DNA of 26,224 nucleotides from a virus (IMGVR_UViG_3300043620_000003:1-26224), one strand, 5' to 3'. Positions 1 through 25,534 are shown, numbered from the stretch's first letter. The notes: generated by a model not told the origin, from the letters alone. Numbers and translations: made by a program.

Positions 1-201
1 TGAACTTGGCCCAACAACTAAAGTTGCGGGTTTTTCATAAGTTCCTGCCGGAATTCTAAATGTTCCCGGCATAATAGTCGGTTTCTTTTCAAAAATTTCA
101 ACTGGATAAATCGAAACAACTGTTGACTTATCTAATGGATTAACTTCAGCGCGCACTGTTCTACGATTGTGTGTAACCCACGGGGGCATTCCAACGTCCA
201 T
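1..201 (-). CDS. Partial phage hypothetical protein (runs off the window)
   Basis: Not in ORF track. ATG at 201-199, preceded by AAGGTG and 2 nt after the upstream stop; reads MDVGMPPWVTHNRRTVRAEVNPLDKSTVVSIYPVEIFEKKPTIMPGTFRIPAGTYEKPATLVVGPSS with no stop to base 1. Confidence 0.8.
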   Translation of the reverse strand, partial: MDVGMPPWVTHNRRTVRAEVNPLDKSTVVSIYPVEIFEKKPTIMPGTFRIPAGTYEKPATLVVGPSS

Positions 202-203
202 GA

Positions 204-749
204 TTAATGCACCTTATCCTTCATATCTTGATTTGGATGAAATCCAGCAACGCCACTTCCATAGGCCATTGCATCTGTTGCATCAGTTTCATTACCGAAC
301 ATTTCTTCTTCAATCTTGGCGATTCTTGCTTGTTTCATCTCCAAAGAATCACCAGGATCGACGTATTGCGCGAGACTGCCTTTGCCCATCGCTGCATTCA
401 CAGTGTTAATAACTAATTGGGTAACTTCCCATTTCGGTGGAAGCGCATTATCATTAGCATCCGTATAAACCCATAAACATTCGTAACTAATTTTAACTTT
501 AAGTTCTTCTTGTGCTGCTTCGTTTAATTCGACTAATTTCTCAAGAATATACTTAGCTTTAATATAATGACGGTATTTAGGAACTTCTCTAACTTCGGGA
601 AATAATAATTTCACACCTTCATCAGTATGATCCATTTTTCGCATTTCCATTTGATCATCAGAAAATACAATGCGATAAATGGGCATTCCATTCCATGCCG
701 TGCCAAAATGTTCCTCTAATCGTTTATTTAAAATCTCTAAAGTTTCCAT
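204..749 (-). CDS. Hypothetical protein downstream of the head genes (181 aa)
   Basis: ORF track; collinear with the late operon; no recognisable motif. Confidence 0.8.
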   Translation of the reverse strand: METLEILNKRLEEHFGTAWNGMPIYRIVFSDDQMEMRKMDHTDEGVKLLFPEVREVPKYRHYIKAKYILEKLVELNEAAQEELKVKISYECLWVYTDANDNALPPKWEVTQLVINTVNAAMGKGSLAQYVDPGDSLEMKQARIAKIEEEMFGNETDATDAMAYGSGVAGFHPNQDMKDKVH

Positions 750-756
750 AAATTAT

Positions 757-843
757 ATTGGACGATATACACACGGGACAATGATTTGTGAGATCATGCT
801 ATTCACAACAGAATTGTTTGAATAGTTATGTATATCGTCCAAT
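757..843 (-). other. Intergenic multi-branch stem-loop (15-bp perfect outer stem plus two inner hairpins)
   Basis: ATTGGACGATATACA (757-771) is the exact reverse complement of TGTATATCGTCCAAT (829-843). Inner stems: ATGAT/ATCAT (781-797) and CTATTCA/TGAATAG (799-825). Confidence 0.8.
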
Positions 844-850
844 TCCTTAA

Positions 851-1210
851 TTAATAGCTCGGATAGTATTTAGCAGTAGTGGGATCGTAACACAGAAGCA
901 GAATTTTATTCTGAACTGTGGTACTTGCGATTCCAATATTACCTGTTGTAGCAGTAACACCAGGACTAGCATTAGAAAATCTTAATGCCAACATGTGTTG
1001 ACCATCAACAGGTGGTGTAATAGTTGCTACAGGCACAGTTCCTGTAACAGTTGTCATAAACGTTGTAGGTGCAATAGTAGCTGCACTTGCCAAAGTAACT
1101 GGCGTTGGCATTCCCGCATTCTGAACTGTAGAAAGCTTCTGAAAGTTTAAATTATCAATTACATGATATAAACCATCAGGGCTCTGAGTGAATTGCTTAA
1201 TCCATCGCAT
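851..1210 (-). CDS. Putative capsid decoration / minor head protein, paralogue B (119 aa)
   Basis: Thr/Ala/Val-rich, beta-type composition; follows the capsid gene; GGAG 8 nt before ATG; paralogous to 1223..1546. Confidence 0.65.
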   Translation of the reverse strand: MRWIKQFTQSPDGLYHVIDNLNFQKLSTVQNAGMPTPVTLASAATIAPTTFMTTVTGTVPVATITPPVDGQHMLALRFSNASPGVTATTGNIGIASTTVQNKILLLCYDPTTAKYYPSY

Positions 1211-1222
1211 TTACATGACTCC

Positions 1223-1546
1223 TTAGTAACTCGGATACCATTTAGAAACAGCTGGATCAAATACTAAAACTAACACCTTATTTTGCACTACTGTAGTAGC
1301 TAATGCAATATTACCAGTTGTTACTGTAGTAAATGGTGATGCATCAGTGCTAAAAAGATAAATAGGTCCACTGAAATATGCATTTGGAGGTGTAATAGTT
1401 GCAACTGGTACTGTTCCTGTGACGCGCGTAATATCGTCAGTTGGAGCAATAGTTGCAGCAGATGCTAATACGGGAACACTTGGAAATACAACGTTTGTAT
1501 CTCCAAATCCTCCCGAACCTGCTAATGCCGGATTTGATGTTGGCAT
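1223..1546 (-). CDS. Putative capsid decoration / minor head protein, paralogue A (107 aa)
   Basis: Starts 2 nt after the capsid stop; shares LASAATIAPT, VTGTVPVATITPP, TTGNI, VQNK and YPSY with 851..1210. Confidence 0.65.
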   Translation of the reverse strand: MPTSNPALAGSGGFGDTNVVFPSVPVLASAATIAPTDDITRVTGTVPVATITPPNAYFSGPIYLFSTDASPFTTVTTGNIALATTVVQNKVLVLVFDPAVSKWYPSY

Positions 1547-1548
1547 TA

Positions 1549-2799
1549 TTAATATCCGCTGGGAACCGCCAGATTATCAATATATGCACAACCTGCCGGA
1601 TTGCTAACAAATGTTTGCATACCAACAGTCATGTAGAAGATATCCGCAGTTGCAACGCCACCAGATGCACCACGAATCTCGAAAATACTTCTTCCATCAG
1701 TCTTGTAGAATCCAATGGGAAGAATTTCAGCACGTCCCCAAACAGCTGTATTAATGAAATCGATACGAGTCTTATCCCAGTTATAAGACTCCTTTACAGA
1801 TGCACCAGCCATCTGCATCTTATCGAAATACATATCTAAGGACTGTTCTTTAGGATCCTTATAAATAACGGAAACTAACTGTCCAATAGATTCATACGCC
1901 TGCTTTTGCGCGGGATGCATCCATGCAACAGGATTGAAATTATTGGCAATACCAATACGATTTCCAATCTTATTAATTGCTAAACGTGGCAATGGTAAAC
2001 TTAAAGCTGCCGATGCCGCGTTAACACGATTTGCACGAATTTCCGGTGTTGCGCTACGTGAAAATCCTAACCATGTTCCAGTAGATGCATTAGAATCATG
2101 GTAAGGCACACCGAACAATGCGGGTAAACTTGCAGGAGCTGAAATACCATTTGTTACAATGATATCTGTTCCAGTTGCACCGGCAATCGAAGGTGTAACT
2201 GTAACAGTTTTATTTTCAACGTCCCATGCAGTAATTAAACCCGAACCGCGCAATGTAGCGAGAGTAGCATCAAATACCTGGATTGTCTGACCATAACGCA
2301 TCAGACGAACACCGAATCCATCAGTTGTGCAAGTATAAGTATCGCTACCACCGGAAACAGCAACAGATGTAATAGTTCCAATAGAGCCAGAACCATTCTG
2401 CATTAACTGAGCATCAATCTGACGCTTCAGTTCATCTAATGCTGTAGCTGTTAATCTCCTGACACTATTAACAACAGCCTTTCGTTCATCATCTGTTGCC
2501 CACTGAGTTAACTTTGTGTATTCAATAGCCTCTAACATGAATACGCAATTTAAAACAGCCTTATCAAACGTCGGTCCACCACCACGGCCCATGTCGCCAC
2601 CATTCGGATCATAATATCCGAAAGAGCCACCGGGACGTAATTCTAATGGAACGCGCATCTGACGATTACTAATCTTCTCAGCAGTTGTAGACTTCTTAAT
2701 CGTGGCGAAAAACGTGTCATCACGTTCAAAAAGTCTAGTAACTTTCGGAAGAACTCGTTCAAGCTCTAAAGCCTGAACCTGACTTTCTACTTGTGCCAT
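1549..2799 (-). CDS. Major capsid protein (HK97-fold, inferred; 416 aa)
   Basis: Size and position after portal and scaffold; strong AGGAG RBS; C-terminal pattern GMQTFVSNPAGCAYIDNLAVPSGY typical of capsid C-termini. Confidence 0.85.
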   Translation of the reverse strand: MAQVESQVQALELERVLPKVTRLFERDDTFFATIKKSTTAEKISNRQMRVPLELRPGGSFGYYDPNGGDMGRGGGPTFDKAVLNCVFMLEAIEYTKLTQWATDDERKAVVNSVRRLTATALDELKRQIDAQLMQNGSGSIGTITSVAVSGGSDTYTCTTDGFGVRLMRYGQTIQVFDATLATLRGSGLITAWDVENKTVTVTPSIAGATGTDIIVTNGISAPASLPALFGVPYHDSNASTGTWLGFSRSATPEIRANRVNAASAALSLPLPRLAINKIGNRIGIANNFNPVAWMHPAQKQAYESIGQLVSVIYKDPKEQSLDMYFDKMQMAGASVKESYNWDKTRIDFINTAVWGRAEILPIGFYKTDGRSIFEIRGASGGVATADIFYMTVGMQTFVSNPAGCAYIDNLAVPSGY

Positions 2800-2816
2800 T
2801 TAATAACTCCTAAGAA

Positions 2817-4085
2817 TTAATCTTCCATCAAAACGTCTAATGTGGATTTGTTCTTAGGGATCTCAGTTTTTTCATCTTTGGTAGTATTATTGGCCCCACC
2901 ACTACGGCCCATTTTTACTGGTCCCTTTTTCTCAACTTCTTCCCGCTCTGTTCCTTCGCGTTTTCCAAGTCCCTTTAAAGCTTCACTCCGATGCTTTGAA
3001 ATAATACCTGGGAGAAGGGACTTTGCCTTATTAAGATGTGCGCGCTTAATCTCATTTAATGATTCACGATTAAACTTTGCTTTACTCGCTCTTTCCCAAA
3101 GTTTATCTAATGTAGCTTGAAATCTACTATCAGCTTTAATTGCTTTATCAACATCATCTAATGCATCACGAATCGCAGTTCGCTTAACATAATCCGTCAT
3201 TGAATCTTTTGGATCAATATGCTTAGCGATTGTTGATTTAATTATATTACCTGACGTCGAACTCAAATCCTCTAAAGCCGATTCAAAACGTTCCTGATGA
3301 AGTTGGGCGCGTTCATTATCTACGGTATCATCACCAATTTTATCAGGTTTCGGTCCAAATTCTTTTGGTGCTTCAAATTGGTTTTTACCGAAAACGAATT
3401 GATTTAATAGAACTGCCGCACCTTGTAAATCTTCATTTTCAATTTCTTTTCCATGTCGACTCATCGCCACGATAGTATTTTTGATTACGTGACCAATGAC
3501 ATGAAAATAAGCTGCCTGATCAACTTTTTGTAAGGTTGGAAGATACTCATCAACAATCTTATTAAATGCCTTACTATCAGCAGTTTTTACTGAATTCAGA
3601 ATTGAATCAATATCTCCAGCTAATAAAGTTTGTTCAAATTTATCATACTGTTCCGATTTAGTAACAGCATCTTTAGCATCATCTAATGTTGGAAGAAGTT
3701 CAGCATACTTCTGTTCGCGATAATATGCCTTTTCAAGTTGAGGAAAATCTTTGAAAATCTTAGGATACTTAGCTAAGATTTCCTTGCGCGGCACATCTTC
3801 TACCGCATCAAGATCATCTAACTCAACTTTATCTTCATCAAGTTCTAATTCTTCATCTTCTGAATCATCTGATTTCTTAGCTTTCTTCTCATCTTTCTTT
3901 TCATCATCATCAGCTAAGAGATCATTTTCCTTCTTTTCCTTACCTTCATCATCAATTTTCTTATCATCAGCAGCTAATTCATCAACCATATCATTGATTG
4001 ATAATTCAGTGGCTCCACCACTAGCTACTGCATCAGGAGCTTCAAAAAATAACTGAATAATTCTAAAAAACTTATTGAGGTCCAT
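2817..4085 (-). CDS. Putative capsid scaffolding / head assembly protein (422 aa)
   Basis: Lies between portal and capsid; acidic low-complexity N-terminal region, helical middle, basic C-terminal region; GGAG RBS. Confidence 0.7.
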   Translation of the reverse strand: MDLNKFFRIIQLFFEAPDAVASGGATELSINDMVDELAADDKKIDDEGKEKKENDLLADDDEKKDEKKAKKSDDSEDEELELDEDKVELDDLDAVEDVPRKEILAKYPKIFKDFPQLEKAYYREQKYAELLPTLDDAKDAVTKSEQYDKFEQTLLAGDIDSILNSVKTADSKAFNKIVDEYLPTLQKVDQAAYFHVIGHVIKNTIVAMSRHGKEIENEDLQGAAVLLNQFVFGKNQFEAPKEFGPKPDKIGDDTVDNERAQLHQERFESALEDLSSTSGNIIKSTIAKHIDPKDSMTDYVKRTAIRDALDDVDKAIKADSRFQATLDKLWERASKAKFNRESLNEIKRAHLNKAKSLLPGIISKHRSEALKGLGKREGTEREEVEKKGPVKMGRSGGANNTTKDEKTEIPKNKSTLDVLMED

Positions 4086-6360
4086 TACTAGCTCCCTGCG
4101 GTAATTTAGCAGCCATCGGAGCTTTTCCAGATGTATCCGGTGGTGCCATCATTGCTTGTTTAGCTTTATCAGCATCTAAGTGCTGTTTCATATGTAATAA
4201 GACGTTTTTATAACCGGGTGGATTATTAATTTTAGCTTGTCGACCAATAGAACTAACTGCCCAACCACGACAAATATCAGCTTCTACTGCATTGTTATCT
4301 ACATCAGGATCAATTTCAATTGATGGTAACTCTGTTGGAGTTCCATCAGGTCCAACACCCCCAGGAATAGGTCCAGATTCAAGAAGAAGTTTGATTTCTT
4401 CATATTGCTTATCACGATCATCTTCACCAGGTAATATAAAATCGTCCAATCCAATTGCTTGTCTAAGTAATGGAAGATTCTCGGGTGAAGCAATTGCAGC
4501 CATAACCTCAGGATTATTACCCTGAAGAAGTTGCATAATTACATCTTTCTTTTGTGCCCAAGTACTTGGTAACTCAAGACTTGATTCTAATTCAACTGAA
4601 CCAATTTTACCTTGAAGTTCTGCGACATGAATGAAATTATTGATAAAAGTATTGTTTTCAGTTTTAGTAACATAACGTTCATCATCTTTAACTTCTTTAA
4701 TGTAAGCAGGAATTACTTTACCAAAAATTTCCTTCCACCAAACATTAAACATTTTCCATGTCGTTCCAAGTCGTTGTTGGGCTTGAGCGCGCGACATGGA
4801 ATATTCGGCAGCAGTTTTACCAGCACCAGTTTGTTGACCACCAAATAATGATGGTAATGCTCCAGAAACTAATTGACCTGCTTCTTGAATCTGCTGACTA
4901 AATGGTAAAATTTCACCAGATAACATCGCAGTCTTAACTGTAAAAAAACCATCTGCAATCGGTTTTCCACCAGTAGGAAGCGCTGGAACTAATGATCCCG
5001 GTGCAATTTCCATCTGGCGATAAGCATCAAGATTTACTGTGCTTGGCGAAACAAATGTTTGTGGAATGCCATGTTCAATCGTTTGTAAGATTAATGACGT
5101 GAGATCATTCGTAATTTCTTGAACCGATGTGAGAAGCATTCCTAGTGGATCAAAATGAACATAATCACTTAACGGATTATATGTAAGTGTCCATTCATCA
5201 TCTAATGAACAATTTTCACTATCGGCATATTGATCATCAACAAATACACACTTAACACCAGCGGGAAATTTCTTCTTTAGTAATTTAACATCTTCTTCAT
5301 TGGGCAAAACATTAAACGCTGATGTACGTAACCAAGCATTACGAATCGTAACATTATTAATTGGTTCTTCACCAAAATATTGTGTGGATGTTCTGCCCCA
5401 ACGTCCAAAATATCCATTACCATCACCAGCTGAACCACTACCACCTGAAATTTTAACTCGCTGACCATTAAATCGATCTTTTAAATCAGGGAATCGTTCA
5501 ATTGCATTAGAGTAATGAGTTTCATATGACCAAATGAGATATGGTGTATCACACTGTTTCTGAGCATAATTCGCTACTTTAACGAACAATCCACCAAAGC
5601 ATTCAATACATTGTCTACTCTTTGGTTTAGTAGTTGTTCCGACAATCCTACTAACCATCATCTTTTTTTGCTGAACTAATGGTTCAACATTTTGCTGACA
5701 TTTAGGACAGAATTTATTGTCCTGAAGCAAATCTTCCATCTCGACATCTGAATCATCAGGATTGAATTCGTCTTTGACCGAGTTCATTATCTCAATGGGC
5801 ATTTCTTCGCCGCATGTCGGACATACGTGAATATCTACATCTTCCTCTTTTGTTTCTTTCTTATCTGTAGTATATTCACCGTATTCATAATCTTCCTTAG
5901 TATAATTATGCGCGGCAACCATTCCCTCGGTGCAATAAATGAAAAGTGCGTGCAACCATAACATTGATACATTGTTATGCTTTGCAATCAATTCAGAGAT
6001 TTGATCGCCTGCTTTAGCAGTTGCGGTATCAAGAGGATCATCAGCATCATCAGGATAACAACGAACAGTAGGAATAGTAATAGAAAGGGCAGCAATGATA
6101 GATTCGAGATACGCTCTAAATACATTAATAGGCTTATCATAATACGATCCATCATTATCTCCATAAGCCGTTTCTTGATCATAAACGCGCCAATCATGCG
6201 CGGTTTCACTCCACCAAATACGTTGGAAACCCGCCCAGAAATATTTAAGGCGCTTCCACGTTAAAATCTGGCGCTCCCTTACAGCTGTATCCTCACCTTC
6301 AAAATGATCTAATACAGTTTTGAGAAGCGTTTCGATTTTCTGATCGCGTTCTTTACTCAT
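4072..6360 (-). CDS. Portal protein (762 aa) with a CxxC...CxxC insertion
   Basis: Large protein between TerL and scaffold; P22-like portal features (GQQTGAGKTAAEYSMSRAQAQQRLG, Gln/Met/Pro-rich tail); CPTC and CPKC motifs. Confidence 0.85.
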   Translation of the reverse strand: MSKERDQKIETLLKTVLDHFEGEDTAVRERQILTWKRLKYFWAGFQRIWWSETAHDWRVYDQETAYGDNDGSYYDKPINVFRAYLESIIAALSITIPTVRCYPDDADDPLDTATAKAGDQISELIAKHNNVSMLWLHALFIYCTEGMVAAHNYTKEDYEYGEYTTDKKETKEEDVDIHVCPTCGEEMPIEIMNSVKDEFNPDDSDVEMEDLLQDNKFCPKCQQNVEPLVQQKKMMVSRIVGTTTKPKSRQCIECFGGLFVKVANYAQKQCDTPYLIWSYETHYSNAIERFPDLKDRFNGQRVKISGGSGSAGDGNGYFGRWGRTSTQYFGEEPINNVTIRNAWLRTSAFNVLPNEEDVKLLKKKFPAGVKCVFVDDQYADSENCSLDDEWTLTYNPLSDYVHFDPLGMLLTSVQEITNDLTSLILQTIEHGIPQTFVSPSTVNLDAYRQMEIAPGSLVPALPTGGKPIADGFFTVKTAMLSGEILPFSQQIQEAGQLVSGALPSLFGGQQTGAGKTAAEYSMSRAQAQQRLGTTWKMFNVWWKEIFGKVIPAYIKEVKDDERYVTKTENNTFINNFIHVAELQGKIGSVELESSLELPSTWAQKKDVIMQLLQGNNPEVMAAIASPENLPLLRQAIGLDDFILPGEDDRDKQYEEIKLLLESGPIPGGVGPDGTPTELPSIEIDPDVDNNAVEADICRGWAVSSIGRQAKINNPPGYKNVLLHMKQHLDADKAKQAMMAPPDTSGKAPMAAKLPQGASNGPQ

Positions 6361-6455
6361 TACTTTTTTCGCGGAAGCAATTTCAATTTGCCTAATTTTA
6401 ATTTAGGTAACTTTTTTAATCCTGGTATTTTAAATGATGGTCCAATGGATTTCAT
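6360..6455 (-). CDS. Small Lys/Leu-rich basic peptide (31 aa) carrying SIGPS
   Basis: Not in ORF track. MKSIGPSFKIPGLKKLPKLKLGKLKLLPRKK*; fills the gap between neighbours; its TAA overlaps the portal ATG (TAATG). Confidence 0.7.
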   Translation of the reverse strand: MKSIGPSFKIPGLKKLPKLKLGKLKLLPRKK

Positions 6456-6457
6456 AA

Positions 6458-6841
6458 TTAAATCATTGGGTTACTTGCATTAGCTTGATTATATACGCCT
6501 TTATTCATCATAGTTCGGCGCATCATATCTTGTGGATTAGACGGTGCAATACTACCAGCTCCACCAGCTTGAACACCATACATATTTCCCATACGCGGTA
6601 ATCCCATACCACCAGTAAATTGACCACCAGGTTGACCAAGAATTTTTGGACTAGGATTTGGATTCATATTAGCAAAATCTGATGGTTGCATAACATCACG
6701 ACCCGGCATAACTGATGGAGCAATAGAACCACCACCTGCACCAAGTTTATCCATAATACTATGCATTACAGAGTATTGATCCATCTTTGGTGCAATAGAA
6801 CTATCTTTACTTCCAGAAATAGAATTATCACCTTTAGCCAT
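6458..6841 (-). CDS. Low-complexity Gly/Met/Pro/Ser-rich protein (127 aa) with repeated SIAP[SK]
   Basis: ORF track; TAATG coupling to the upstream gene; composition suggests disorder. Confidence 0.75.
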   Translation of the reverse strand: MAKGDNSISGSKDSSIAPKMDQYSVMHSIMDKLGAGGGSIAPSVMPGRDVMQPSDFANMNPNPSPKILGQPGGQFTGGMGLPRMGNMYGVQAGGAGSIAPSNPQDMMRRTMMNKGVYNQANASNPMI

Positions 6842-7026
6842 TATTTAAATCCTTTAAAATTTTTAGATGGACCGATTGATTTAGATCTATATTCAGGTTT
6901 AGTTTTACTTTCACGTTTTTCACTTAACATAATCGCAATAGCTTGCTTACGATTTTTAACCTTACCACCTGAACTAGATTTAAGTTCTCCATGCTTAAAT
7001 TTATGCATTACTTGATCGAATGGCAT
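6841..7026 (-). CDS. DUF6496-like small basic protein with a C-terminal SIGPS tail (about 61 aa)
   Basis: VMHKFKHGELKSSSGGKVKNRKQAIAIMLSE matches the DUF6496 pattern as I recall it; AGGAG favours the ATG at 7026 over the TTG at 7032. Confidence 0.75.
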   Translation of the reverse strand: MPFDQVMHKFKHGELKSSSGGKVKNRKQAIAIMLSEKRESKTKPEYRSKSIGPSKNFKGFK

Positions 7027-7384
7027 CATCAACTCCTAATTCTTCTTCTAATTTATCAACTGAAGTAATTGGAATTGCATCCATTTCTTTACGCTTCTCA
7101 CGTTTTAATTCTGCAGTTTTTCTATCTTCAACTTCTAAAATATGTCGACGCGCGCGCCAACTTAAATTACTATTAACTGGTTGAGTAACTACAACTTGTG
7201 ATGGAACAACTTCTTCTTTAGTTTTAACCTTATCAAGTAATGCCTGAATCAGTTGATCATTGTGCTTTCTTAATGCCTGATTTTCAATTCTTAAGGTATT
7301 ACAAGAATCACACACTTGCTGATCTAAATAATCTTCTTTACAATCAAGACAATGTGGATTAAAAAACTTATGGAACCAATTCAT
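7001..7384 (-). CDS. Hypothetical protein with HCxxC/CxxC and coiled coil (127 aa)
   Basis: ORF track; directly downstream of TerL. Confidence 0.75.
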   Translation of the reverse strand: MNWFHKFFNPHCLDCKEDYLDQQVCDSCNTLRIENQALRKHNDQLIQALLDKVKTKEEVVPSQVVVTQPVNSNLSWRARRHILEVEDRKTAELKREKRKEMDAIPITSVDKLEEELGVDDAIRSSNA

Positions 7385-7387
7385 AAC

Positions 7388-9705: not shown

Positions 9706-9714
9706 ATTAATTAA

Positions 9715-16582: not shown

Positions 16583-16588
16583 ATGCAA

Positions 16589-16684: not shown

Positions 16685-16697
16685 ACCTTATATGATG

Positions 16698-17042: not shown

Positions 17043-17091
17043 GGTGTCTCTCCTTATCGGTGAAGGCGTTATGCCCTCAACCAATGAAACA

Positions 17092-17120
17092 AGTATAGCA
17101 TAACTCGGATTGGTTGTCAA
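17092..17120 (-). promoter_or_regulatory. Near-consensus sigma70-type promoter
   Basis: Minus strand TTGACA-N17-TATACT with TGn extended -10. Confidence 0.85.
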
Positions 17121-17262
17121 CTGTTATTATTTGATGATGTCGATTTTCAGACCTGACCTGATTGGGTGACACCCCCCCTCCCCTCTGGTAAATCTTTTGG
17201 GGCAGTCCGACAAAACCGTCAAAATCGGCTTTTCTTCTAAGGAATGATTTGAAGAAGATTTG

Positions 17263-17286
17263 TTTTTTTTTTTTTTTTTTTTTTTT
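17263..17286. repeat. Poly(T)24 homopolymer
   Basis: 24 consecutive T counted directly. Confidence 0.95.
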
Positions 17287-17337
17287 ATCTTCCTTTTAAA
17301 ACTTCTAATTACTAAAAAGTGTCCCCTTTCTTGGGCA

Positions 17338-17366
17338 TTGACTTTTGGGCTTAGACGTGGTAAGCT
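17338..17366 (+). promoter_or_regulatory. Sigma70-type promoter for the early/replication operon
   Basis: TTGACT-N17-TAAGCT with TGn extended -10, 80 nt upstream of the 17447 ATG. Confidence 0.75.
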
Positions 17367-17446
17367 TATGAGAGATGAAGGGGAGTGTCCGGAAAAGGAG
17401 ACACCTGTCCACCGAGTCAGTCCGACCATGTTTCACCTAGAATAAT

Positions 17447-17704
17447 ATGAAAACTCTAACTAATTATCAGTTGACAAATGGAAATTGTTTAATCTGTTCT
17501 AAACGTGGAAAGATTGAAAATATCAACGATAAAGAGTATTATCTTTGTGAAAATCATAATATAATGATTGAAACCGATATCATTAAATTAATGGATGATC
17601 TTGGAGATACATGGTCAAGATTAAATCTCAAAGGTGATAAAGTTCAACGATGTAATAAATTATATGAATTGTTAGGAGCATTAAAAACAATTCAATTTAG
17701 TTAA
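17447..17704 (+). CDS. Cys/His-containing hypothetical protein (85 aa)
   Basis: CLIC...LCENH; first gene of the rightward operon. Confidence 0.7.
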   Translation: MKTLTNYQLTNGNCLICSKRGKIENINDKEYYLCENHNIMIETDIIKLMDDLGDTWSRLNLKGDKVQRCNKLYELLGALKTIQFS

Positions 17705-17706
17705 TC

Positions 17707-17973
17707 ATGGCAAAAATTAAGCATACACATAAATATCACAAGATTACATTAGCATTTGGTCAAGTATGGAAATGTGGTGATGAAGATTGCACGCATTTCA
17801 TGCCAAATAATTTAACACCAGTTTTACTTGGGCGCGCTTCAATTTGTTGGGAATGTGGCGAAAAGTTTAAGTTAAATTCTGTTAATATGTTGAAAGATAG
17901 ACCAGTTTGTGATGATTGTAATCCAAGTATTGAATCAATGGCAGCATTACTTAATAAAATGGGTGTTAAGTAA
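17707..17973 (+). CDS. Double zinc-finger-like protein (88 aa)
   Basis: HTHKY...C-x4-C-x-H and CWEC...CDDC. Confidence 0.8.
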   Translation: MAKIKHTHKYHKITLAFGQVWKCGDEDCTHFMPNNLTPVLLGRASICWECGEKFKLNSVNMLKDRPVCDDCNPSIESMAALLNKMGVK

Positions 17974-18807
17974 GTGAATCACTCATTCATCGCTGCACCT
18001 TGGAATCAAAAAATCTGCCGTGGTTATCCGTCTGCCGATGGAAAAGTAATTCCATGCCTTCAAATTGAATCGGCGCATGGAAAAGATGTAACATGTGAGT
18101 CATGTAATAACGTTGGCGAAGTAGAACTATTCAATCGGATGCTCCTTTGCGCATCATGCGTCGCTAAGGAAATCGAATCAATTAATAAACCATCAATCGA
18201 GCAAATCGAATCATTAAGTATTGAGCAAACTCTTAATCAAGTCAATCGCATACTCGAAACTAATCAAATCGCTAATGGCGATGGAGAAGCTGTAAAAGAT
18301 ATCATTGATGCCGCTATCGCAGGTAATATTAAAGAATATAAAGATTTCTTTAATGCTAAAATTCCATCCATAATGTCACTTAAAGAGACGGTTGAGTCTG
18401 ATAATGAGATTCCCGTTGATAAAAAGCATTATGCGGTAATGAGCCTATTGAAACGTCGCGTTCAATACCTAGCGATGGTTTTATTCCAGACTCGCAATAG
18501 TCAAATTGAAATCGGCGCAGAAATGAAATCGATTCAGTTTTATATGGCTGAAACCATACCGAAACTGAGAATGAAGTTACGCGCCGAATTTGCGCTAAAC
18601 ACGCCGAATTACACTCCACAAGTTATTAAATCTGGTGTGCCAAAGGAACGTAAAGGTAAGCAATCACCATCAGATAAGATTGCATCGATGTATGCCAAAT
18701 CAATGAAAATTTCAATCGATGAAGCGAAGAAAATCATCGAACGTGGTTTGCGAGAAAACTGCACATGTAATGAAACGCCGGGAATGTGTAAGGTGCATAA
18801 TTCATGA
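17974..18807 (+). CDS. Hypothetical protein with N- and C-terminal Cys clusters (277 aa)
   Basis: GTG start directly after the previous stop; CESC...CASC; terminal CTC...CKVH. Confidence 0.8.
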   Translation: MNHSFIAAPWNQKICRGYPSADGKVIPCLQIESAHGKDVTCESCNNVGEVELFNRMLLCASCVAKEIESINKPSIEQIESLSIEQTLNQVNRILETNQIANGDGEAVKDIIDAAIAGNIKEYKDFFNAKIPSIMSLKETVESDNEIPVDKKHYAVMSLLKRRVQYLAMVLFQTRNSQIEIGAEMKSIQFYMAETIPKLRMKLRAEFALNTPNYTPQVIKSGVPKERKGKQSPSDKIASMYAKSMKISIDEAKKIIERGLRENCTCNETPGMCKVHNS

Positions 18808-18899
18808 AACCTTATTCAAGACGATTAACTACTGATTTGATTCGAGAATATAGTTTAATTAAGTTAATTTATTCTTGGATATATTGGAAAATCAAATGA
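18804..18899 (+). CDS. Small hypothetical peptide (31 aa)
   Basis: Not in ORF track. MKPYSRRLTTDLIREYSLIKLIYSWIYWKIK*; AAGGTG upstream; ATGA overlaps at both ends. Confidence 0.55.
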   Translation: MKPYSRRLTTDLIREYSLIKLIYSWIYWKIK

Positions 18900-19117
18900 T
18901 TAAAACATGTAAGAATCAGCATATCATCGACGTAGTAATGAAATCTGATTACTGGCGCGCGGTATGGATTAACAGAATCTGTTACTTCAGAACGTTTGAA
19001 GATAACGTAATTTATCACGGTGGATTACATATAGAGAATTCAAATGATGTGTTTAATCGTTTTGATAATCCTAATCAAATATCCGAAACAAACTTGGGAA
19101 ATATTGAAACCGAATAA
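18896..19117 (+). CDS. Hypothetical protein (73 aa)
   Basis: ATG 18896 preferred to TTG 18875 because of the ATGA coupling. Confidence 0.6.
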   Translation: MIKTCKNQHIIDVVMKSDYWRAVWINRICYFRTFEDNVIYHGGLHIENSNDVFNRFDNPNQISETNLGNIETE

Positions 19118-19120
19118 GTT

Positions 19121-19291
19121 ATGAGTCAAGAAGAATTATTTAATCAAGCATCAGCATTATTTTATACGATGCCTCATAAAATTAAAGTTCTCGTACTTTT
19201 AGAATTTTCAGTTAATACATGTGAGTATCGTGGTAAATCTGTTCTAGATGTATGGATTGATGCTGTCAATAAAATCGATAGATTAAGATAG
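19121..19291 (+). CDS. Hypothetical protein (56 aa)
   Basis: Not in ORF track. MSQEELFNQASALFYTMPHKIKVLVLLEFSVNTCEYRGKSVLDVWIDAVNKIDRLR*. Confidence 0.65.
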   Translation: MSQEELFNQASALFYTMPHKIKVLVLLEFSVNTCEYRGKSVLDVWIDAVNKIDRLR

Positions 19292-19370
19292 TTAAATCTT
19301 TAATACTATCCATCAATCATTTCATCGGCGTATAATAAGATTTGATTGATGGGTAGAATTAAGTATTTAA
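19292..19370 (+). other. Long imperfect intergenic hairpin (28-bp stem)
   Basis: 19292-19319 pairs with 19343-19370 at 24/28 Watson-Crick positions plus one G-U. Confidence 0.8.
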
Positions 19371-19385
19371 ATTGAGGTTATTAAA

Positions 19386-19547
19386 ATGATTACCATGCTA
19401 AAAGCACTTAAAATCGGAACTGAATTTCATACACATTTAGATAATTGTAAACAATGTAGAGAACAACCATTTAATTTATGTTTGATTGGTAAAAATATAT
19501 TAAATAAATTATTGAAAGAAGGTGATAACAATGTATTGCATGGGTGA
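19386..19547 (+). CDS. Small His/Cys metal-binding-like protein (53 aa)
   Basis: Not in ORF track. GAGGT RBS; MITMLKALKIGTEFHTHLDNCKQCREQPFNLCLIGKNILNKLLKEGDNNVLHG*. Confidence 0.7.
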   Translation: MITMLKALKIGTEFHTHLDNCKQCREQPFNLCLIGKNILNKLLKEGDNNVLHG

Positions 19548-19556
19548 CTAAAGCAA

Positions 19557-19617
19557 TTAAGTATTTTGGTTTATCATCAGTATTCACCAGAGCCTGATGA
19601 TAAACTCAAGTATTTAA
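19557..19617 (+). other. Intergenic hairpin upstream of the helicase
   Basis: GTTTATCATCAG (19569-80) / CTGATGATAAAC (19594-605) is a perfect 12 bp, extendable with G-U pairs to TTAA...TTAA. Confidence 0.75.
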
Positions 19618-19639
19618 ACTTAATGAAATAACTGAAATT

Positions 19640-21334
19640 ATGACAACAATAACTCAAGTGAAAACTGAACCAATTCCACGCAAGTTAAATATTTTTCGTG
19701 AACATTGCGAGGTATGTAAAGCTATCGCGCGCATTAAATCGGAAAAGTTATTTACATCTAATGGAAGCCAAAAGAAATTAATCACATTAGAATGTGGTCA
19801 CATCAGAATTACTGAAGCTGAAAGTTTTTCACCTTTTGAAACTGTAGTTAGTAATTTCTGGAAACCTCATGTAGCTGCATGTAAACATGAATGGGATCCA
19901 ATTGATATTAAACTTTGTAACAAATGTGGTGAGAATAGATTATATCCTTTTCAAGTTGAGGGTGCGCGATTCCTTGAAAAAAATAATGGACGCGCAGGTA
20001 TATTTGATGAGCAGGGATTAGGTAAAACTGTTCAAAATCTTGCTTATCTTAGATTTCATGCTGAAAAGTTACCTGTATTATTTATCGTTAAATCTAAACT
20101 TAAGTTTCAATGGTTAACTGAAATTATTAGATGGTGTGGTGAAGATTATTTCCCACAAATCATTGGCGATGGTAAAACTGGTGTCGCCAAAGGTTTAAAA
20201 TGTTATATCACATCATTTGACCTTTTAAGAAATATTGATAAAAAGAAACTTGAATCTCTTAATCTTCAAACCATTGTGATTGATGAAGTTCAAGCGATTA
20301 AGAATCCTGAATCAACGCGAACTAAAAATCTTCAATTCATTTGCAAAAATGTTCCAAATATCATTCCATTAAGTGGGACACCTTGGAAAAATCGCGGAAG
20401 TGAATTATTCGTCGTGCTTAACATGCTTAATCCTCAGAAGTTCTGGTCATTACAGAATTTCTTAGATACGTGGGTCGAGTATTACATGCATGGTAATCGC
20501 CCGAAACAAGGTGGAATTAGGAACATAGCAAAGTTTAAGGAATTTACCAAAGATATGTTCATTAGACGTGAACGTTCTGAGGTAATGCCCGAATTACCCA
20601 AAACCAATAGAGTAAGATTGACATGTGAGATTGAAGACCATGCGCGCAAAGCTTATGAAGAAGAAGTAAGTGAATTTGTCAAATGGTATAATGAATTAGT
20701 TATATCAGGTGAAGAAGATAATTCATCAACTGAATCTGGTATGCTTGCGCGCCTCAATCGAATGCGCCACATTATTGCATTAGCTAAGATTCCTTATACA
20801 TTAGATTGGGTAGAAGATTTCGTTGAAGAAACAGAACGTAATCTAATCATTGGCGTGCATCATAAAGATGTAGGATTACTTCTCGTATCTCAATTGAAAA
20901 AAGCACATCCTGATATTAATATTTTAGCAATGACCGCAAGTCAATCAGATGATGAGCGTAATAAAATTAAATCCGATTTCATTAATGGTAAACGCGCTAT
21001 AATTGTTGCATCCACCTTATCCGCTGGTGAGGGGACTGATGGATTACAAAAAGCTTGTTATGATATGGTGATTCACGAACGTCAATGGAATCCCATGAAT
21101 GAAGAACAATTAGAAGATAGACTAGCACGCATTGGTTCGATTGCACCACAAAAAGTTAACGTAACATATATTCATGCTGATGATTCAACTGATATTCAAT
21201 TAGATGCAATTGTTGAACAAAAAAGACGCCAGTTTCACGCGGTAATGAATAAAGGTGAAATGGCTCAATGGCATACAGGATCAATCATTAGTGAATTAAG
21301 TAAGATGTTAGTTACACGTGGAGCGCGCAAATGA
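19640..21334 (+). CDS. SNF2-family (SF2) helicase/translocase with N-terminal Cys-rich domain (564 aa)
   Basis: Q motif LYPFQ, motif I DEQGLGKT, motif II IDEVQ, motif III LSGTP, motif V GEGTDGLQ, motif VI QLEDRLARIG. Confidence 0.92.
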   Translation: MTTITQVKTEPIPRKLNIFREHCEVCKAIARIKSEKLFTSNGSQKKLITLECGHIRITEAESFSPFETVVSNFWKPHVAACKHEWDPIDIKLCNKCGENRLYPFQVEGARFLEKNNGRAGIFDEQGLGKTVQNLAYLRFHAEKLPVLFIVKSKLKFQWLTEIIRWCGEDYFPQIIGDGKTGVAKGLKCYITSFDLLRNIDKKKLESLNLQTIVIDEVQAIKNPESTRTKNLQFICKNVPNIIPLSGTPWKNRGSELFVVLNMLNPQKFWSLQNFLDTWVEYYMHGNRPKQGGIRNIAKFKEFTKDMFIRRERSEVMPELPKTNRVRLTCEIEDHARKAYEEEVSEFVKWYNELVISGEEDNSSTESGMLARLNRMRHIIALAKIPYTLDWVEDFVEETERNLIIGVHHKDVGLLLVSQLKKAHPDINILAMTASQSDDERNKIKSDFINGKRAIIVASTLSAGEGTDGLQKACYDMVIHERQWNPMNEEQLEDRLARIGSIAPQKVNVTYIHADDSTDIQLDAIVEQKRRQFHAVMNKGEMAQWHTGSIISELSKMLVTRGARK

Positions 21335-21507
21335 ACCAAAGAATTATCACCATAAAAATTCTTGTAACTGATCCAACAAATAATCCCCATTCATTTTCTA
21401 CGCTTGATACATTTAAAACTAGTGTATTGAAAACGATTAATGATTACACCGAAGTAAGATGGAAAGTAGCTAGTATCATTCAATTACTTGATGAGCCAGA
21501 TAAATGA
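21331..21507 (+). CDS. Hypothetical protein (58 aa)
   Basis: Not in ORF track. MNQRIITIKILVTDPTNNPHSF...LLDEPDK*; ATGA overlaps at both ends. Confidence 0.7.
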   Translation: MNQRIITIKILVTDPTNNPHSFSTLDTFKTSVLKTINDYTEVRWKVASIIQLLDEPDK

Positions 21508-21797
21508 TATCACAGAAATTACTCGATAAGATGCCCTTACGCGATCGTGAGATGATTCAAATTTTTCAAATGGTTTTTAATAAAGATGAATTGAATCTAA
21601 TCACGAGAATATTTGGTGCTGAGAAACTTGCAATTTTCATGAAAATGTCATCAATGCTCGCGCCAAGTGGCCGTCAGGCCGGATTAGGTTTAGTAGCCAC
21701 AATTCTTTCTACGATGAAAGAACAAGGTTCAATGAGCGCATTCTTTGCTGAGGCTAATTCATTTAAAGCTGTAATTACTAATGATAAGGTGCATTAA
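21504..21797 (+). CDS. Hypothetical helical protein (97 aa)
   Basis: ORF track; tight tiling. Confidence 0.75.
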   Translation: MISQKLLDKMPLRDREMIQIFQMVFNKDELNLITRIFGAEKLAIFMKMSSMLAPSGRQAGLGLVATILSTMKEQGSMSAFFAEANSFKAVITNDKVH

Positions 21798-21799
21798 TT

Positions 21800-21997
21800 A
21801 TGCATAATATATCAATGGAATTAGCATTAATTCTTAATCTTCGTAATGCGGCATTAGATCATAAGGAACATTGTAATCATAATTGTAATGTTTCATTAGG
21901 TCAATTAAAACGCGCAGCTGAATATATTCGTTCTACGGTTCCAATGTATGAGCAAATCGAAGCAGTTAAATTTATTAATGAAATGCCGATTACATAA
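21800..21997 (+). CDS. Hypothetical protein (65 aa) with HxxxCxxxC
   Basis: ORF track; AAGGTG upstream. Confidence 0.7.
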   Translation: MHNISMELALILNLRNAALDHKEHCNHNCNVSLGQLKRAAEYIRSTVPMYEQIEAVKFINEMPIT

Positions 21998-22251
21998 TGA
22001 CTAATTCAATCCTTGAAACTCATATCATTAATCTAATCGAAGTTAATTATGGACTAAAGAGAACTGAATTAGTCCATAAGATCATGTCACTTGATTTGAA
22101 TATTAGTCAGAATGATATTCTCAATCGAGTTTATGATATGGTGGAATCTGGAATAATCATTGAAATTGAAATGATGTTCCCTAATCATACTAGTAGAAGT
22201 TTTTTTGTAATGCGCGGTACGACGTTCAATGTGATTAGGAAGGTTAAGTAA
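21997..22251 (+). CDS. Possible winged-helix protein (84 aa)
   Basis: Three helices then beta strands (VYDMVESGIIIEIE); TAATG coupling. Confidence 0.6.
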   Translation: MTNSILETHIINLIEVNYGLKRTELVHKIMSLDLNISQNDILNRVYDMVESGIIIEIEMMFPNHTSRSFFVMRGTTFNVIRKVK

Positions 22252-22409
22252 TGCTTATTACAATTGAACATGCGGCGCGTGAATTAGGTGTAAGTCAATC
22301 TACCATTCGACGATGGATTAAATCAGGTAAATTACCAGCTTCTAAACCATCAAATATTACATATGTATTTATTTCTGGACCTTCTAGTACTCCTGAGAAA
22401 AAGAAATGA
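22251..22409 (+). CDS. Excisionase/MerR-like HTH DNA-binding protein (52 aa)
   Basis: Not in ORF track. MLITIEHAARELGVSQSTIRRWIKSGKLPA is a classic HTH_17-type signature. Confidence 0.85.
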   Translation: MLITIEHAARELGVSQSTIRRWIKSGKLPASKPSNITYVFISGPSSTPEKKK

Positions 22410-22588
22410 CTCGTGATAAATCTCCTATTGACCAGGAATGGATTAATAAGTACTGTGATGAATTTCTAAAGATTGCAGGTCAATTACCTGAAGGTATGAT
22501 GCGTAATGCCGTATTACGTCGTGTAGAATACGTAATGGATTTAACTGAAGCATGGCAAAAACGAAATAATCCATTGGAAATGAGATGA
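22406..22588 (+). CDS. Hypothetical protein (60 aa)
   Basis: ORF track; ATGA overlaps. Confidence 0.7.
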   Translation: MTRDKSPIDQEWINKYCDEFLKIAGQLPEGMMRNAVLRRVEYVMDLTEAWQKRNNPLEMR

Positions 22589-22797
22589 TCATCGCATGGG
22601 TTAATACAGGTAATCTATTTGCTGATATAGTCGCGCGCTTCGGTGCGATGCTAACATTTTATATAATTGTAATTTTCTATGGAATTATATTCGGTTTTAT
22701 GAAGATTTCATGGAATTGTGGAGTTTGTGGTAAACCAAATACAACTAATATGATTAAATTCATACTTCAATTTTGTGATCATCAAGGTAATATGTAA
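22585..22797 (+). CDS. Small membrane protein with CxxC (70 aa)
   Basis: TM segment FGAMLTFYIIVIFYGIIFGFM; CGVC. Confidence 0.65.
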   Translation: MIIAWVNTGNLFADIVARFGAMLTFYIIVIFYGIIFGFMKISWNCGVCGKPNTTNMIKFILQFCDHQGNM

Positions 22798-22979
22798 TGA
22801 AACAAGTAATTATCATTTGTCGAACATGCGAAGATATAAATAAATCTCGTCTTGGAACAACTGGATTTGATGTGCGCGATACGGAATATGAATCGCTTAC
22901 TGATGCAATGGAACATTTACTCAGTTATGAACGCGAAGATAGTCCTAATCATCGCATGGAAATGGTTGTGAAAGAATGA
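22797..22979 (+). CDS. Hypothetical protein with CxxC...H...H (60 aa)
   Basis: ORF track; TAATG coupling. Confidence 0.7.
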   Translation: MKQVIIICRTCEDINKSRLGTTGFDVRDTEYESLTDAMEHLLSYEREDSPNHRMEMVVKE

Positions 22980-23137
22980 CCAAATCACAATGGCAATCCA
23001 TGCTTGATGCAGCCAACATTATCGAAGATATAGCTTTTAAATTTCTTAAAGCTGAACCAACTAAATCAACGATTAAATATGAAATTAAAAAAATTAAAGA
23101 TTTGATCTTCATTGGACAATCAAATGCCACCGATTAA
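22976..23137 (+). CDS. Hypothetical protein (53 aa)
   Basis: Not in ORF track. MTKSQWQSMLDAANIIEDIAFKFLKAEPTKSTIKYEIKKIKDLIFIGQSNATD*. Confidence 0.65.
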   Translation: MTKSQWQSMLDAANIIEDIAFKFLKAEPTKSTIKYEIKKIKDLIFIGQSNATD

Positions 23138-24065
23138 CGTAGCAATGGACGCAACAATTCTATCATCTCTCATGTCATGTGGTGCAGTTACTGATTACAA
23201 ATATAATCAGAATCTGACTCAAAAAGGTGGTAAATCTAATTCGCTCGAAGTCGGAAGTCTTGTTCATGTATTTTTAGAATATTATTATCAAAGTCTTATT
23301 GATAAGAAATCAAAGTCCAATGCTATCGACGCAGGTGTAGCAGCGGCAAAATTATTCATCAAAGGATGTTCTATCTGTCAGAATTATCCTATTGATGCCA
23401 TTGGTCAACCGCCATGCGGTCATAAAAATGCTGATTTCATTGGCATGGTTAACACGCCTCAAAAGTCGGAAAAACGTGGGAAACAAGAATTAATCGGTTG
23501 GGAATGGGCTTTAGATACTTGTATGCAGTATCTTGCTCATTATGTTAATGACTCATTTACTCCGTTAGCAGCCGAATTAACCAAGAGTGAAATCATATTT
23601 GAAAATGAGTTCATTAGAATTTTATGGAAAGCCAAATTCGATCTAATCGCTGATAGTGGTATGATTATTCCATTTGATCATAAAACGATGAAACAACGTC
23701 GTGATTCACTTAGTCTAAACAATCAATTCATGGGACAATGTATTCTAACTAAATCAAGGAATATGATTGTCAATAAGATTGGATTTCAAACGTCCCTTAA
23801 ACCGAATGAAAAGTTCGAGCGCGCTATGATGTCATATTCCAAAGCTCGATTGGATGAATGGCAAAATGAAATCGTGCCATATTGGGCCGGCGTTTATGTA
23901 AATTACATCCAATCCGGTATATGGCCGCGTAATTTCACCCATTGCGAGAATAAGTATGGATTTTGTGATTTCAAGGAAGTGTGTTCAAGTGATAAGAACA
24001 TGCGGAATGAAGTTATTAAACTCAACTTTACTAAGCGTCGTGTGTGGGATGTCACGAACGATTAA
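23124..24065 (+). CDS. PD-(D/E)xK exonuclease, RecB/Cas4-like (about 313 aa)
   Basis: GSLVHVFLE, AAE, KFDLI, FDHKT, QF; one N-terminal Cys plus C-terminal CENKYGFCDFKEVC (Fe-S-type arrangement). Confidence 0.88.
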   Translation: MPPINVAMDATILSSLMSCGAVTDYKYNQNLTQKGGKSNSLEVGSLVHVFLEYYYQSLIDKKSKSNAIDAGVAAAKLFIKGCSICQNYPIDAIGQPPCGHKNADFIGMVNTPQKSEKRGKQELIGWEWALDTCMQYLAHYVNDSFTPLAAELTKSEIIFENEFIRILWKAKFDLIADSGMIIPFDHKTMKQRRDSLSLNNQFMGQCILTKSRNMIVNKIGFQTSLKPNEKFERAMMSYSKARLDEWQNEIVPYWAGVYVNYIQSGIWPRNFTHCENKYGFCDFKEVCSSDKNMRNEVIKLNFTKRRVWDVTND

Positions 24066-24166
24066 TGATAATCTGGACTCGCGTTTCATGGAATACCTAT
24101 TACGCCCTAGATACAACTCTATGGAATACGTGGTTAGCAAACTCATGTCAATGGGAGGGCAGAAAT

Positions 24167-24559
24167 ATGGAAAATGATAAGCCGTATGATCCTTATGCGA
24201 AAGATACTCAAATCAAGAATGATTACTTAAAAGAGAATCATGTATTGAAGAATGAACGTTCAATGCGCGGTGATAGTCTTGATGGAAGTCAAGGCGCGCG
24301 CTTACGAATGGATGCTGCTGAATCATGTGCTAATCAATCATCAGCTCCATTAGAAACCCTCGAACAAGAACGAAATCGTCTTTCACGTAAGTTAATTCAA
24401 ACGTTATCTGAAAATGAAACTCGTATACGTGTTCTAAAAGATATGCTTGAATCTCTTGAACGTTGGCAGAAGAATGGATATTATTTGAGAGATTCGATTA
24501 ATAATTCGAGTCAAATTCAAATGGATCAGATTCATCAGATGCGTGAATATCTCAAATGA
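24167..24559 (+). CDS. Coiled-coil hypothetical protein (130 aa; longer starts possible)
   Basis: GGAGG 8 nt before ATG 24167; the frame is open back to 24044. Confidence 0.7.
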   Translation: MENDKPYDPYAKDTQIKNDYLKENHVLKNERSMRGDSLDGSQGARLRMDAAESCANQSSAPLETLEQERNRLSRKLIQTLSENETRIRVLKDMLESLERWQKNGYYLRDSINNSSQIQMDQIHQMREYLK

Positions 24560-24747
24560 TTATCTCACAACTTAATATAACTTTAAGTCCAGTTAAAGAT
24601 ATGGATGGACCAGATGATCCGATTAAAGGATTAGAAATGATAAATAATCGATGGTCATTTACTGGTTCACTTTATCCACGCGAAGTTAGATTAATGTCAG
24701 CGTTAGAAGCATTGATTAAGGAATTTAATCGTAATGCCAAACCTTAA
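24556..24747 (+). CDS. Hypothetical protein (63 aa)
   Basis: ORF track; ATGA overlap. Confidence 0.7.
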   Translation: MIISQLNITLSPVKDMDGPDDPIKGLEMINNRWSFTGSLYPREVRLMSALEALIKEFNRNAKP

Positions 24748-25534
24748 CGCCGAATTAAATAATAACGCGCTCTATTCCATGTTTAAAGGCGAAGCTGGAA
24801 TGAGAAAATCAAGCGTTGCATTGTCTTATCCAACGCCTCAATATTGGTTTTCTTTTGATAAGAAAATGCGCGCCTTACTTCTTCCAATGCAAGCATTAAA
24901 ACTTGATCCATTGCTTGTAGATTATGATGATTACAAAGATTGGGATGCACCACGCAAGAAATTAGAAATTCTTCAATCTTCATGTAAATATAAGACAATT
25001 ATCATTGATTCCGTTACATCATGTGCTGATGCTATTCTTGCCCAAGGTAAGAAAATGAAATCAGGTGGTGGTAAGGTAATCAATGGCATTCAAGTTAATT
25101 CGATTGAAGATTATAATGCTGAAGATAGTGCATTAAGTGAAATGGTTGCATTAACTAAAGATATTCATGATTTTCATAAAGTAAATATTATTCTTATTGC
25201 TCATGTGATGGAAGTAACTAGTAAATCTCTCACTGGTGAAACTCATGTGAGTAGAACAATTGTAACTGCCGGTAAACGTATTAGTATCAAAATTCCCGCA
25301 TATTGTGAGGAAGTTTATCATTTTGATATTGAAACCGGCTTTGAAGAAGGTTCTGGAGGTGATTATAAATTAATTACAAGTCATACCGGAGATGATTTTG
25401 CCCGAACGTCTCTGCCATTACCTAAAACTATTAAGTTTAAGAGTAATGAAAACTTTTATGAGAAGTACATTTTAGAGGGCATCAAAAAATTAAAAACCGA
25501 TCTTGCAAACAATCCAATCGTCAAAATCCCTTAA
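24734..25534 (+). CDS. AAA_24 / Sak4-like RecA-fold single-strand annealing ATPase (266 aa)
   Basis: P-loop variant GEAGMRKS, Walker B TIIIDS, NIILIAH; lies between the exonuclease and the SSB-like gene. Confidence 0.8.
   Translation: MPNLNAELNNNALYSMFKGEAGMRKSSVALSYPTPQYWFSFDKKMRALLLPMQALKLDPLLVDYDDYKDWDAPRKKLEILQSSCKYKTIIIDSVTSCADAILAQGKKMKSGGGKVINGIQVNSIEDYNAEDSALSEMVALTKDIHDFHKVNIILIAHVMEVTSKSLTGETHVSRTIVTAGKRISIKIPAYCEEVYHFDIETGFEEGSGGDYKLITSHTGDDFARTSLPLPKTIKFKSNENFYEKYILEGIKKLKTDLANNPIVKIP

Follow-up and report, generated by a model that had tools for sequence, protein, structure and literature searches.

We analysed a 26,224-base virus record (IMGVR_UViG_3300043620_000003:1-26224; 37.0% GC), here called the window, which is estimated to hold 56% of a phage genome of about 46 kb. 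The five-letter word GCGCG, or its complement CGCGC, is dispersed along this DNA at about five times the frequency that protein content and codon usage would account for. The left arm carries the capsid, likely portal and terminase genes, and the right arm those of an SNF2 helicase, an exonuclease and a Sak4-like protein; complete relatives (41-49 kb) additionally encode a UDG-fused family-A polymerase (PolA) and a DUF3987 protein. The features of the window are as follows.

149..25950, no strand assigned: dispersed GCGCG/CGCGC word with 104 pentamer matches, which lie in 62 separate tracts of 5-9 bases with alternating G and C (count and null models)
15118..16145, no strand assigned: three non-coding pentamer sites, at 15118, 16006 and 16141
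1549..2799, minus strand: major capsid protein, late arm, not tracking the word (PHROG 14242; trees)
4072..6360, minus strand: likely portal, late arm, not tracking the word (size, position, weak PHROG 332 match; tree)
7388..8971, minus strand: large terminase (TerL), on whose tree AGCCG takes 5-6 changes
15191..15799, minus strand: likely small terminase with a helix-turn-helix (HTH), helices and a C-terminal strand, marking one limit of the block that moves together with the word (weak HTH matches, alignment, trees; named from its architecture)
16698..17042, minus strand: F21, the lone 114-aa gene of the control region and a candidate reader, replaced by F70 in AGCCG and GCCGC phages (model pLDDT 84)
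17974..18807, plus strand: F22, early gene with a cysteine-rich N-terminus followed by long helices (low-confidence model)
19640..21334, plus strand: SNF2-type helicase, early arm (PF00176, PF00271)
23112..24065, plus strand: PD-(D/E)XK exonuclease, early arm
24734..25534, plus strand: Sak4-like single-stranded-DNA-annealing protein, candidate reader (PHROG 124; tree)
25548..25958, plus strand: F15, small conserved gene downstream of Sak4, possibly a single-stranded-DNA-binding protein judging by its position

The original prediction had described the palindrome GCGCGC as highly iterated in a genome of roughly 36% GC. All 24 starts that it listed are indeed GCGCGC, those at 1423, 9902 and 13212 are CGCGCG, and overlapping copies at 7150/7152, 10395/10397 and 24294/24296 bring the count to 27 matches at 24 loci. 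About one is expected from base composition, as had been estimated, and palindromes of the same composition are as rare as it had noted (GGCGCC 2, CCGCGG 1, GCCGGC 1); CGCGCG has 15 matches in the window. GCGCGC had a mean of 2.2 (maximum 7) in 300 dinucleotide shuffles, 2.7 (maximum 9) in 500 synonymous-codon shuffles and 2.0 (maximum 8) in codon-order shuffles, so that its 24-27 copies per 26.2 kb (about 900-1000 per Mb) lie 10-12-fold above these nulls. For the pentamers, GCGCG (54) and CGCGC (50) sum to 104 against 18.4 expected, and 101 were counted in genes against 20 under the synonymous shuffle. All 27 hexamers are coding; the non-coding sites that had been pointed out at 16006 and 16141, together with 15118, are pentamers. 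The dipeptides are not enriched (Ala-Arg 29 and Arg-Ala 27, against 27.5 expected), and the pairs that begin GCG CG or CGC GC number 20 of 29 and 18 of 27, respectively. Every reading frame is used by GCGCGC (11/4/12). Thus the excess survived the codon-shuffled and dinucleotide nulls as well as the Ala-Arg frequency, and the earlier proposal that the pressure acts on DNA rather than on protein holds.

GCGCGC tops the hexamers under Markov models of order 0-2 and not under order 3, which places the signal at four to five letters. Each GCGCGC is two overlapping pentamers, and such palindromes hold 54 of the 104 pentamers. A codon-preserving model with one weight per pentamer (3.9-fold per site) gave 22.4 GCGCGC against 23 in called genes, and the same model in 10 genomes gave 376 against 327 hexamers at 3.2-5.8-fold per site. 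Among single words, the pseudo-likelihood in the window ranked the pentamer (50.3) above GCGC (45.7), CGCG (36.3) and the hexamer (27.5); once the shorter words were fitted, the hexamer term was 1.12 in the window and 0.96 pooled, which does not support the palindrome as the unit. CGCGCG saturates, with a term of 0.43-0.47. Over 15 pooled loci, one flank raised counts about 4-fold and both flanks about 14-fold over base composition, and CGCG that lacked a 5′ G or 3′ C was near expectation, as was GCGC that lacked a 5′ C or 3′ G. The maintained unit is GCGCG/CGCGC, shorter than the palindrome.

Comparison of relatives agreed with this unit. In five pairs, fourfold-degenerate G/C positions were kept at 100 of 138 in hexamers and 96 of 179 in pentamers, and at 20 of 90 in CGCG-only and 23 of 62 in GCGC-only sites, the rate elsewhere being 0.28-0.35. 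Excess synonymous conservation is found only at sites of pentamer length or longer, and thus the pentamer is the minimal maintained unit. In close pairs, G/C differences inside motifs were not lower overall (0.153 vs 0.145, unadjusted for codon position), and whole pentamers were kept at 0.62 vs 0.28-0.50. Words one letter off the pentamer were also enriched, transitions being at 1.39-1.74-fold at all five positions, with GCGCT the only depleted class. A second estimate gave 1.14-1.66 for one-offs at the ends, 1.33-1.47 for internal transitions and 0.96-1.25 for internal transversions. Single sites show no polarity, with 251 in one orientation and 256 in the other over 13 genomes and no coding-strand or genome-strand bias, and they are uniform along genomes in 5-kb bins. 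The excess extends to the non-coding DNA of 9 relatives, and site density across the family ranges from 0.8 to 9 per kb.

To follow the word across the family, 199 loci of at least 7 kb were gathered and near-identical ones merged into 116 distinct records. CGCGC was the top CG-containing GC-rich pentamer in 53 of these and ranked first among all 512 pentamers in 46; other records were led by AGCCG (11), TCGCG (8), GCCGC (7) or further words (15), and 22 were weak. Codon-shuffle nulls on 23 genomes agreed with the assignments. Across relatives the word has a variable end and a constant one (G/T/A/C-CGCG). As separate observations on short words, some lineages have lost almost all copies of GATC, GTAC or both (0-7 against about 110-130 expected; G009, G010, G012, G014, G023, G025, G027, G030 and G034), AGCGCT is depleted (5 vs 37 pooled) and GACC/GGTC are higher where GATC is lost. 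The GACCC/GGTC excess of G027 and G034 was considered as a T7-type site and is read instead as a by-product of GATC loss.

Judged from trees and identities, the word changes not with head or tail genes but with a block of about ten genes, which begins at the small terminase, takes in the control region and extends to Sak4, PolA and the helicase. AGCCG phages are scattered on the capsid and large-terminase trees. On the small-terminase tree of 39 records AGCCG requires one change (0 of 2000 shuffles as low), whereas on the large-terminase tree of the same 39 records it requires five (557 of 2000 as low), although the two genes are adjacent; a large-terminase tree by IQ-TREE gave 6 changes for 7 rows. 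The complete AGCCG phage G436 gives the clearest case. Its TerL, capsid and one tail protein are 70-79% identical to those of G010 and, where listed, 62-76% identical to those of G027, and it stands beside G027 on the portal (support 0.98) and capsid (0.92) trees, yet its early arm is only 21-41% identical to the family (PolA 35-39%, helicase 31-36%, Sak4 21-27%). The 21-kb late arm of G436 contains 58 AGCCG and 1 GCGCG. In this phage, whose early arm is swapped, the head and tail genes have been converted to the new word. PolA proteins 73-89% like that of G436 were found at 13 further loci, with AGCCG on top in 9 and GCCGT in 3; ten short ones among them, pooled, had 83 AGCCG vs 19.3 expected and 2 CGCGC vs 5.4. 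AGCCG was on top in none of the 86 records with other PolA types.

Several products of this block could read the word. F21 occurs in 27 records, of which 19 are CGCGC, none AGCCG and one mixed GCCGC, and F70 in 6 (4 AGCCG, 2 GCCGC). Neither had a significant profile match, and the F21 model had no match in a Foldseek search of PDB; F21 is duplicated in G028 (32255-32614 and 34393-34758). Of 37 records, the 6 with a GCCG core form a single group on the Sak4 tree (support 0.96) and on no other early-gene tree. F22 was not found in the complete GCCGC, CGAGC and AGCGC genomes. The DUF3987 protein has no sequence relative in PDB, its homologues are annotated as "primase" in three phage records, and no primase domain was found in the 247 family proteins scanned, families of less than 100 aa outside the window not being scanned. 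YerA41 is reportedly a case of a priming family-A polymerase. Family-A polymerases able to prime do exist, such as CCPol-MP with Cch2, according to the accessible text of PMC10201439. That the PolA clade alone sets the word was considered and failed, the PolA clades not mapping cleanly on words.

A phage methyltransferase, which the original prediction had placed among the possible causes, was not found: no N4/N6 enzyme (PF01555) was above cut-off in 30 family records and no C5 enzyme (PF00145) in 31 (15 of the records at least 90% complete), with one weak partial C5 match in G012 and a single Dam-type gene, in G020. Tyrosine integrases were absent from the 31 family records, serine integrases not being searched for, and these phages, with their own polymerase, appear to be lytic.

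Named relatives are distant: capsid and portal had no match in 50,697 phage records, and all PolA matches were below 30%. The window was found in soil metagenomes, with at least half of its words in 6 runs, one of which is possibly its source. Variants were numerous in strain contigs of four soil runs (40 rows), and in those of other soil runs gene-sized stretches of the window at 12508-14379 and 10117-10661 were replaced or skipped. A 395-aa protein at 10881-12068 has 42 homologues, and a feature search weakly (0.80) suggests a carboxypeptidase-regulatory plus glycoside-hydrolase architecture. A long T/A homopolymer tract, read from translations of open reading frames, lies at about 17260-17290 in the control region that separates both arms. 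An Acb2/Tad1 hairpin-domain gene, likely an anti-defence sponge, was seen in 7 of 23 family genomes, one copy being at L101:15899-16204 (G007).

On the host side, the nearest integrated kin are 13 loci in Acidobacteria metagenome-assembled genomes (MAGs), with 41-43% capsid identity and 61-70% GC; they show no CGCGC excess under an order-1 model. One of them (L099, in G004) is unpublished, and no claim depends on it alone. Four closer matches were short contigs in MAGs of other phyla and are likely mis-binned. Family contigs L083-L086, from Bacteroidetes, Nitrosotalea, Pacearchaeota and Alphaproteobacteria MAGs, were likely binned by composition. A capsid match was found in 2 of 401 Acidobacteriota, positions 1-20000 of the window had no DNA or spacer match in 40 genomes, and signature matching to 43 chromosome samples, made within the phylum, reached r of at most 0.46. 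CGCGC ranged from 0.07- to 1.73-fold in 48 Acidobacteriota chromosome samples and was the top of its class in 6; this set is biased, being drawn from the first 20 on the list and another 37 chosen by pattern counts, with short ones dropped. In G184 the strands carried GCGCG at 1.79- and 1.67-fold, with a comparable halo around the word, which was not polar in G184, G284 or G195 (z 1.9, 1.1 and -1.9), which are not proven hosts. Five CGCGC-rich Acidobacteriota, whose genomes may be incomplete, share no methyltransferase class (C5 in 3 of 5, N4/N6 in 3 of 5, none in G306), and the C5 gene of G184 sits in an apparent defence cluster. PF12705 proteins occurred in 5 of 5 Acidobacteriota checked. 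Another word, GCGGC, is polar on the G-rich strand of G184 (L202, L224-L230; z 4.2) and G284 (L210, L231-L234; z 2.8) and reversed in G195 (z -2.6), and is a possible Chi candidate.

Our preferred, though tentative, reading is that GCGCG is a genome-wide site that a phage protein of the early arm reads in trans, most likely to begin priming or strand annealing there in recombination-dependent replication. The word is kept at hundreds of sites, in either orientation, across the genomes of the family; its reader, which we infer to exist, would be Sak4, the UDG-PolA/DUF3987 helicase pair or F21. Both orientations would serve in recombination-dependent replication, under which the lagging-strand bias that these sites lack would not be expected. 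Each added site would bring a small benefit, doubled in GCGCGC where both strands carry one, and after an early-arm exchange had brought a new reader the new word would gradually take over throughout the genome. A bolder version, which we regard as doubtful, would make this the phage's own equivalent of Chi. The early module would be exchangeable, its recombination or priming protein would recognise a word of five letters, and each exchange would rewrite the mark genome-wide, in head and tail genes too.

Several observations weigh against reading by an early-arm protein. The unit is graded: with one term each for the tetramers CGCG and GCGC the fit improves on that of the pentamer by itself, from 50.3 to 62.6 in the window and from 841 to 900 in the pooled data. 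Spacing was near random (coefficient of variation 0.85-1.02 vs 0.96-1.07 simulated, slightly more even in 5 of 8 genomes), and a priming function might need even spacing. Some Acidobacteriota chromosomes, not proven hosts, share the top word at 1.4-1.7-fold. One structural background may be common to the 13 G436-type loci. The GCCG-core records fall into two groups on the PolA and helicase trees, and the branches that the Sak4 grouping unites are long. CGCGC also tops divergent PolA clades (L316, L319, L321, L330 and L334) that hold CGAGC and AGCGC phages. The early-arm genes are co-inherited and not separable, and the early arm may itself match host type, which would leave a host cause.

Such a cause could be a drive of the kind proposed for highly iterated palindromes (HIPs), in which a host CGCG-specific cytosine methyltransferase and repair favouring G-meC would ratchet G+CGCG, CGCG+C and then GCGCGC into any DNA replicating there. 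We consider this possible, if questionable. The geometry parallels the model for G+CGATCG+C in the accessible text of Elhai (2015, PMC4390886); the family variants echo alternate HIPs (GCCGC = GCsGC, TCGCG near TCGATCGA, CCGGC/ACCGG near rCCGGy); there is about one hexamer per kb, and end one-offs are mostly the highest, at 1.3-1.7 for 5 of 6. G184 carries the word on both strands, and the purging of GATC and GTAC in some lineages indicates that hosts do imprint family genomes. However, the word tracks the early arm and not head or tail genes, which weakens a host-only cause. The five CGCGC-rich Acidobacteriota without a shared methyltransferase class, densities that do not saturate near 1 per kb, one-off classes undepleted save GCGCT and the apparently lytic habit likewise argue against it. 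A functionless mutational signature, with a context-dependent UDG-PolA or early repair protein and alternating G/C tracts of 4-6 bases that resist A/T drift, would equally predict early-arm tracking, late-arm rewriting, non-polarity, random spacing and a non-coding excess, and would suit the graded tetramer terms and the saturation in longer tracts. Yet a process that protects or repairs one position should make the transition variant there rarer, whereas transitions are enriched at all five positions; tetramer-only sites lack the extra conservation that pentamers have, and PolA clades do not follow the words. We therefore regard it as unlikely.

The short, asymmetric, GC-rich word also resembles the Chi-like sites of host AddAB-type nucleases, which the phage could have gathered for its protection or for recombination; known Chi include AGCGG and GCGCGTG (PMC5959072, accessible text), phages do accumulate Chi (PMC3784561 and PMC12315714, accessible text), and PF12705 proteins were found in all Acidobacteriota checked. 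In the accessible parts of these reports, phage Chi is in one orientation and end-clustered (20 vs 3; 32 vs 0), in contrast to the balanced and uniform GCGCG sites, which are non-polar in the three chromosomes as well and follow a phage module, making this origin improbable. Even less credible is an iterated packaging site or self-mark bound by the small terminase. The tree of this protein does group 6 AGCCG and 3 GCCGC records. Nevertheless, the AGCCG-type small-terminase-like protein of G017 (L157:1582-2031) lacks the HTH segment of the GCGCG-type proteins, which weakens the small terminase as reader; the recognition-helix motif is the same in GCGCG, TCGCG and CCCGG phages (one AGCCG row in the alignment), and the GCCGC phages G023 and G030 keep a GCGCG-type protein. 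The packaging-protein site offered by the original prediction is weakened on this account, and a site for another phage protein is our best reading. Finally, a protein-level or codon-usage artefact has a negligible probability. It could appeal to the 101 of 104 pentamers in genes, 38 of which coincide with Ala-Arg or Arg-Ala in frame 0, but the synonymous shuffle refutes it, the dipeptides are unenriched, all frames and both strands are used, and motif fold is unrelated to Ala-Arg/Arg-Ala excess (rho 0.11 in 23 genomes).

For the question of what makes and reads highly iterated words such as HIP1, a word that differs between close relatives and moves with about ten genes yields a short candidate list and natural swap pairs, such as a GCGCG phage and G436. 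If the reader is a phage protein, phage replication would have a step guided by sequence that the literature searched did not reveal, and predicting hosts from oligomers would, in this abundant soil family, pick up a phage trait rather than a host trait.

Among known systems, the pattern comes closest to HIP1 (GCGATCGC) and the alternate HIPs of cyanobacteria, with their route through G+CGATCG and CGATCG+C (Elhai 2015, PMC4390886, accessible text). Both are short GC-rich words at about one per kb, HIPs being at roughly 1000-2000 per Mb, on both strands and in coding DNA in all frames; in both, one-off variants are common and deviate most at the first and last base, the geometry is G+core+C, and other words replace them in some lineages (on the HIP side including GCsGC). 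Unlike HIP1, GCGCG sits in a lytic-looking phage whose genome has no cognate methyltransferase, and it follows a phage gene module; 54 of 104 pentamers lie in the full palindrome, while the 7-mers of HIP1 are, in the same accessible text, almost as frequent as HIP1 itself. The HIP-like label of the original prediction is therefore kept for the GC-only word, its density, both strands and the common one-offs, and is lost for the palindromic unit and the methyltransferase in the genome. With Chi of lambdoid phages (PMC3784561, PMC12315714, accessible text) GCGCG shares a short asymmetric GC-rich word over-represented beyond codon needs; it differs in having no orientation bias or one-end clustering, in tracking phage genes rather than the host, and in a phage that itself encodes a Sak4 and an exonuclease. 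In the literature searched, which left subscription journals mostly uncovered and excluded supplements, we found no mention of phages that iterate GCGCG or GCGCGC, nor of a genome-wide excess of primase-type sites. T7 primase recognition sites are pentamers, and GCGCG resembles them in its five letters with a constant and a variable end and in a UDG-fused PolA with DUF3987 and no recognisable primase; strand polarity is absent here, and priming is put forward as a proposal only. The pattern is real, strong and family-wide, HIP-like yet without the palindromic unit and the methyltransferase in the genome, and its new elements are a unit of five letters, alternate words in relatives and an association with a phage module.

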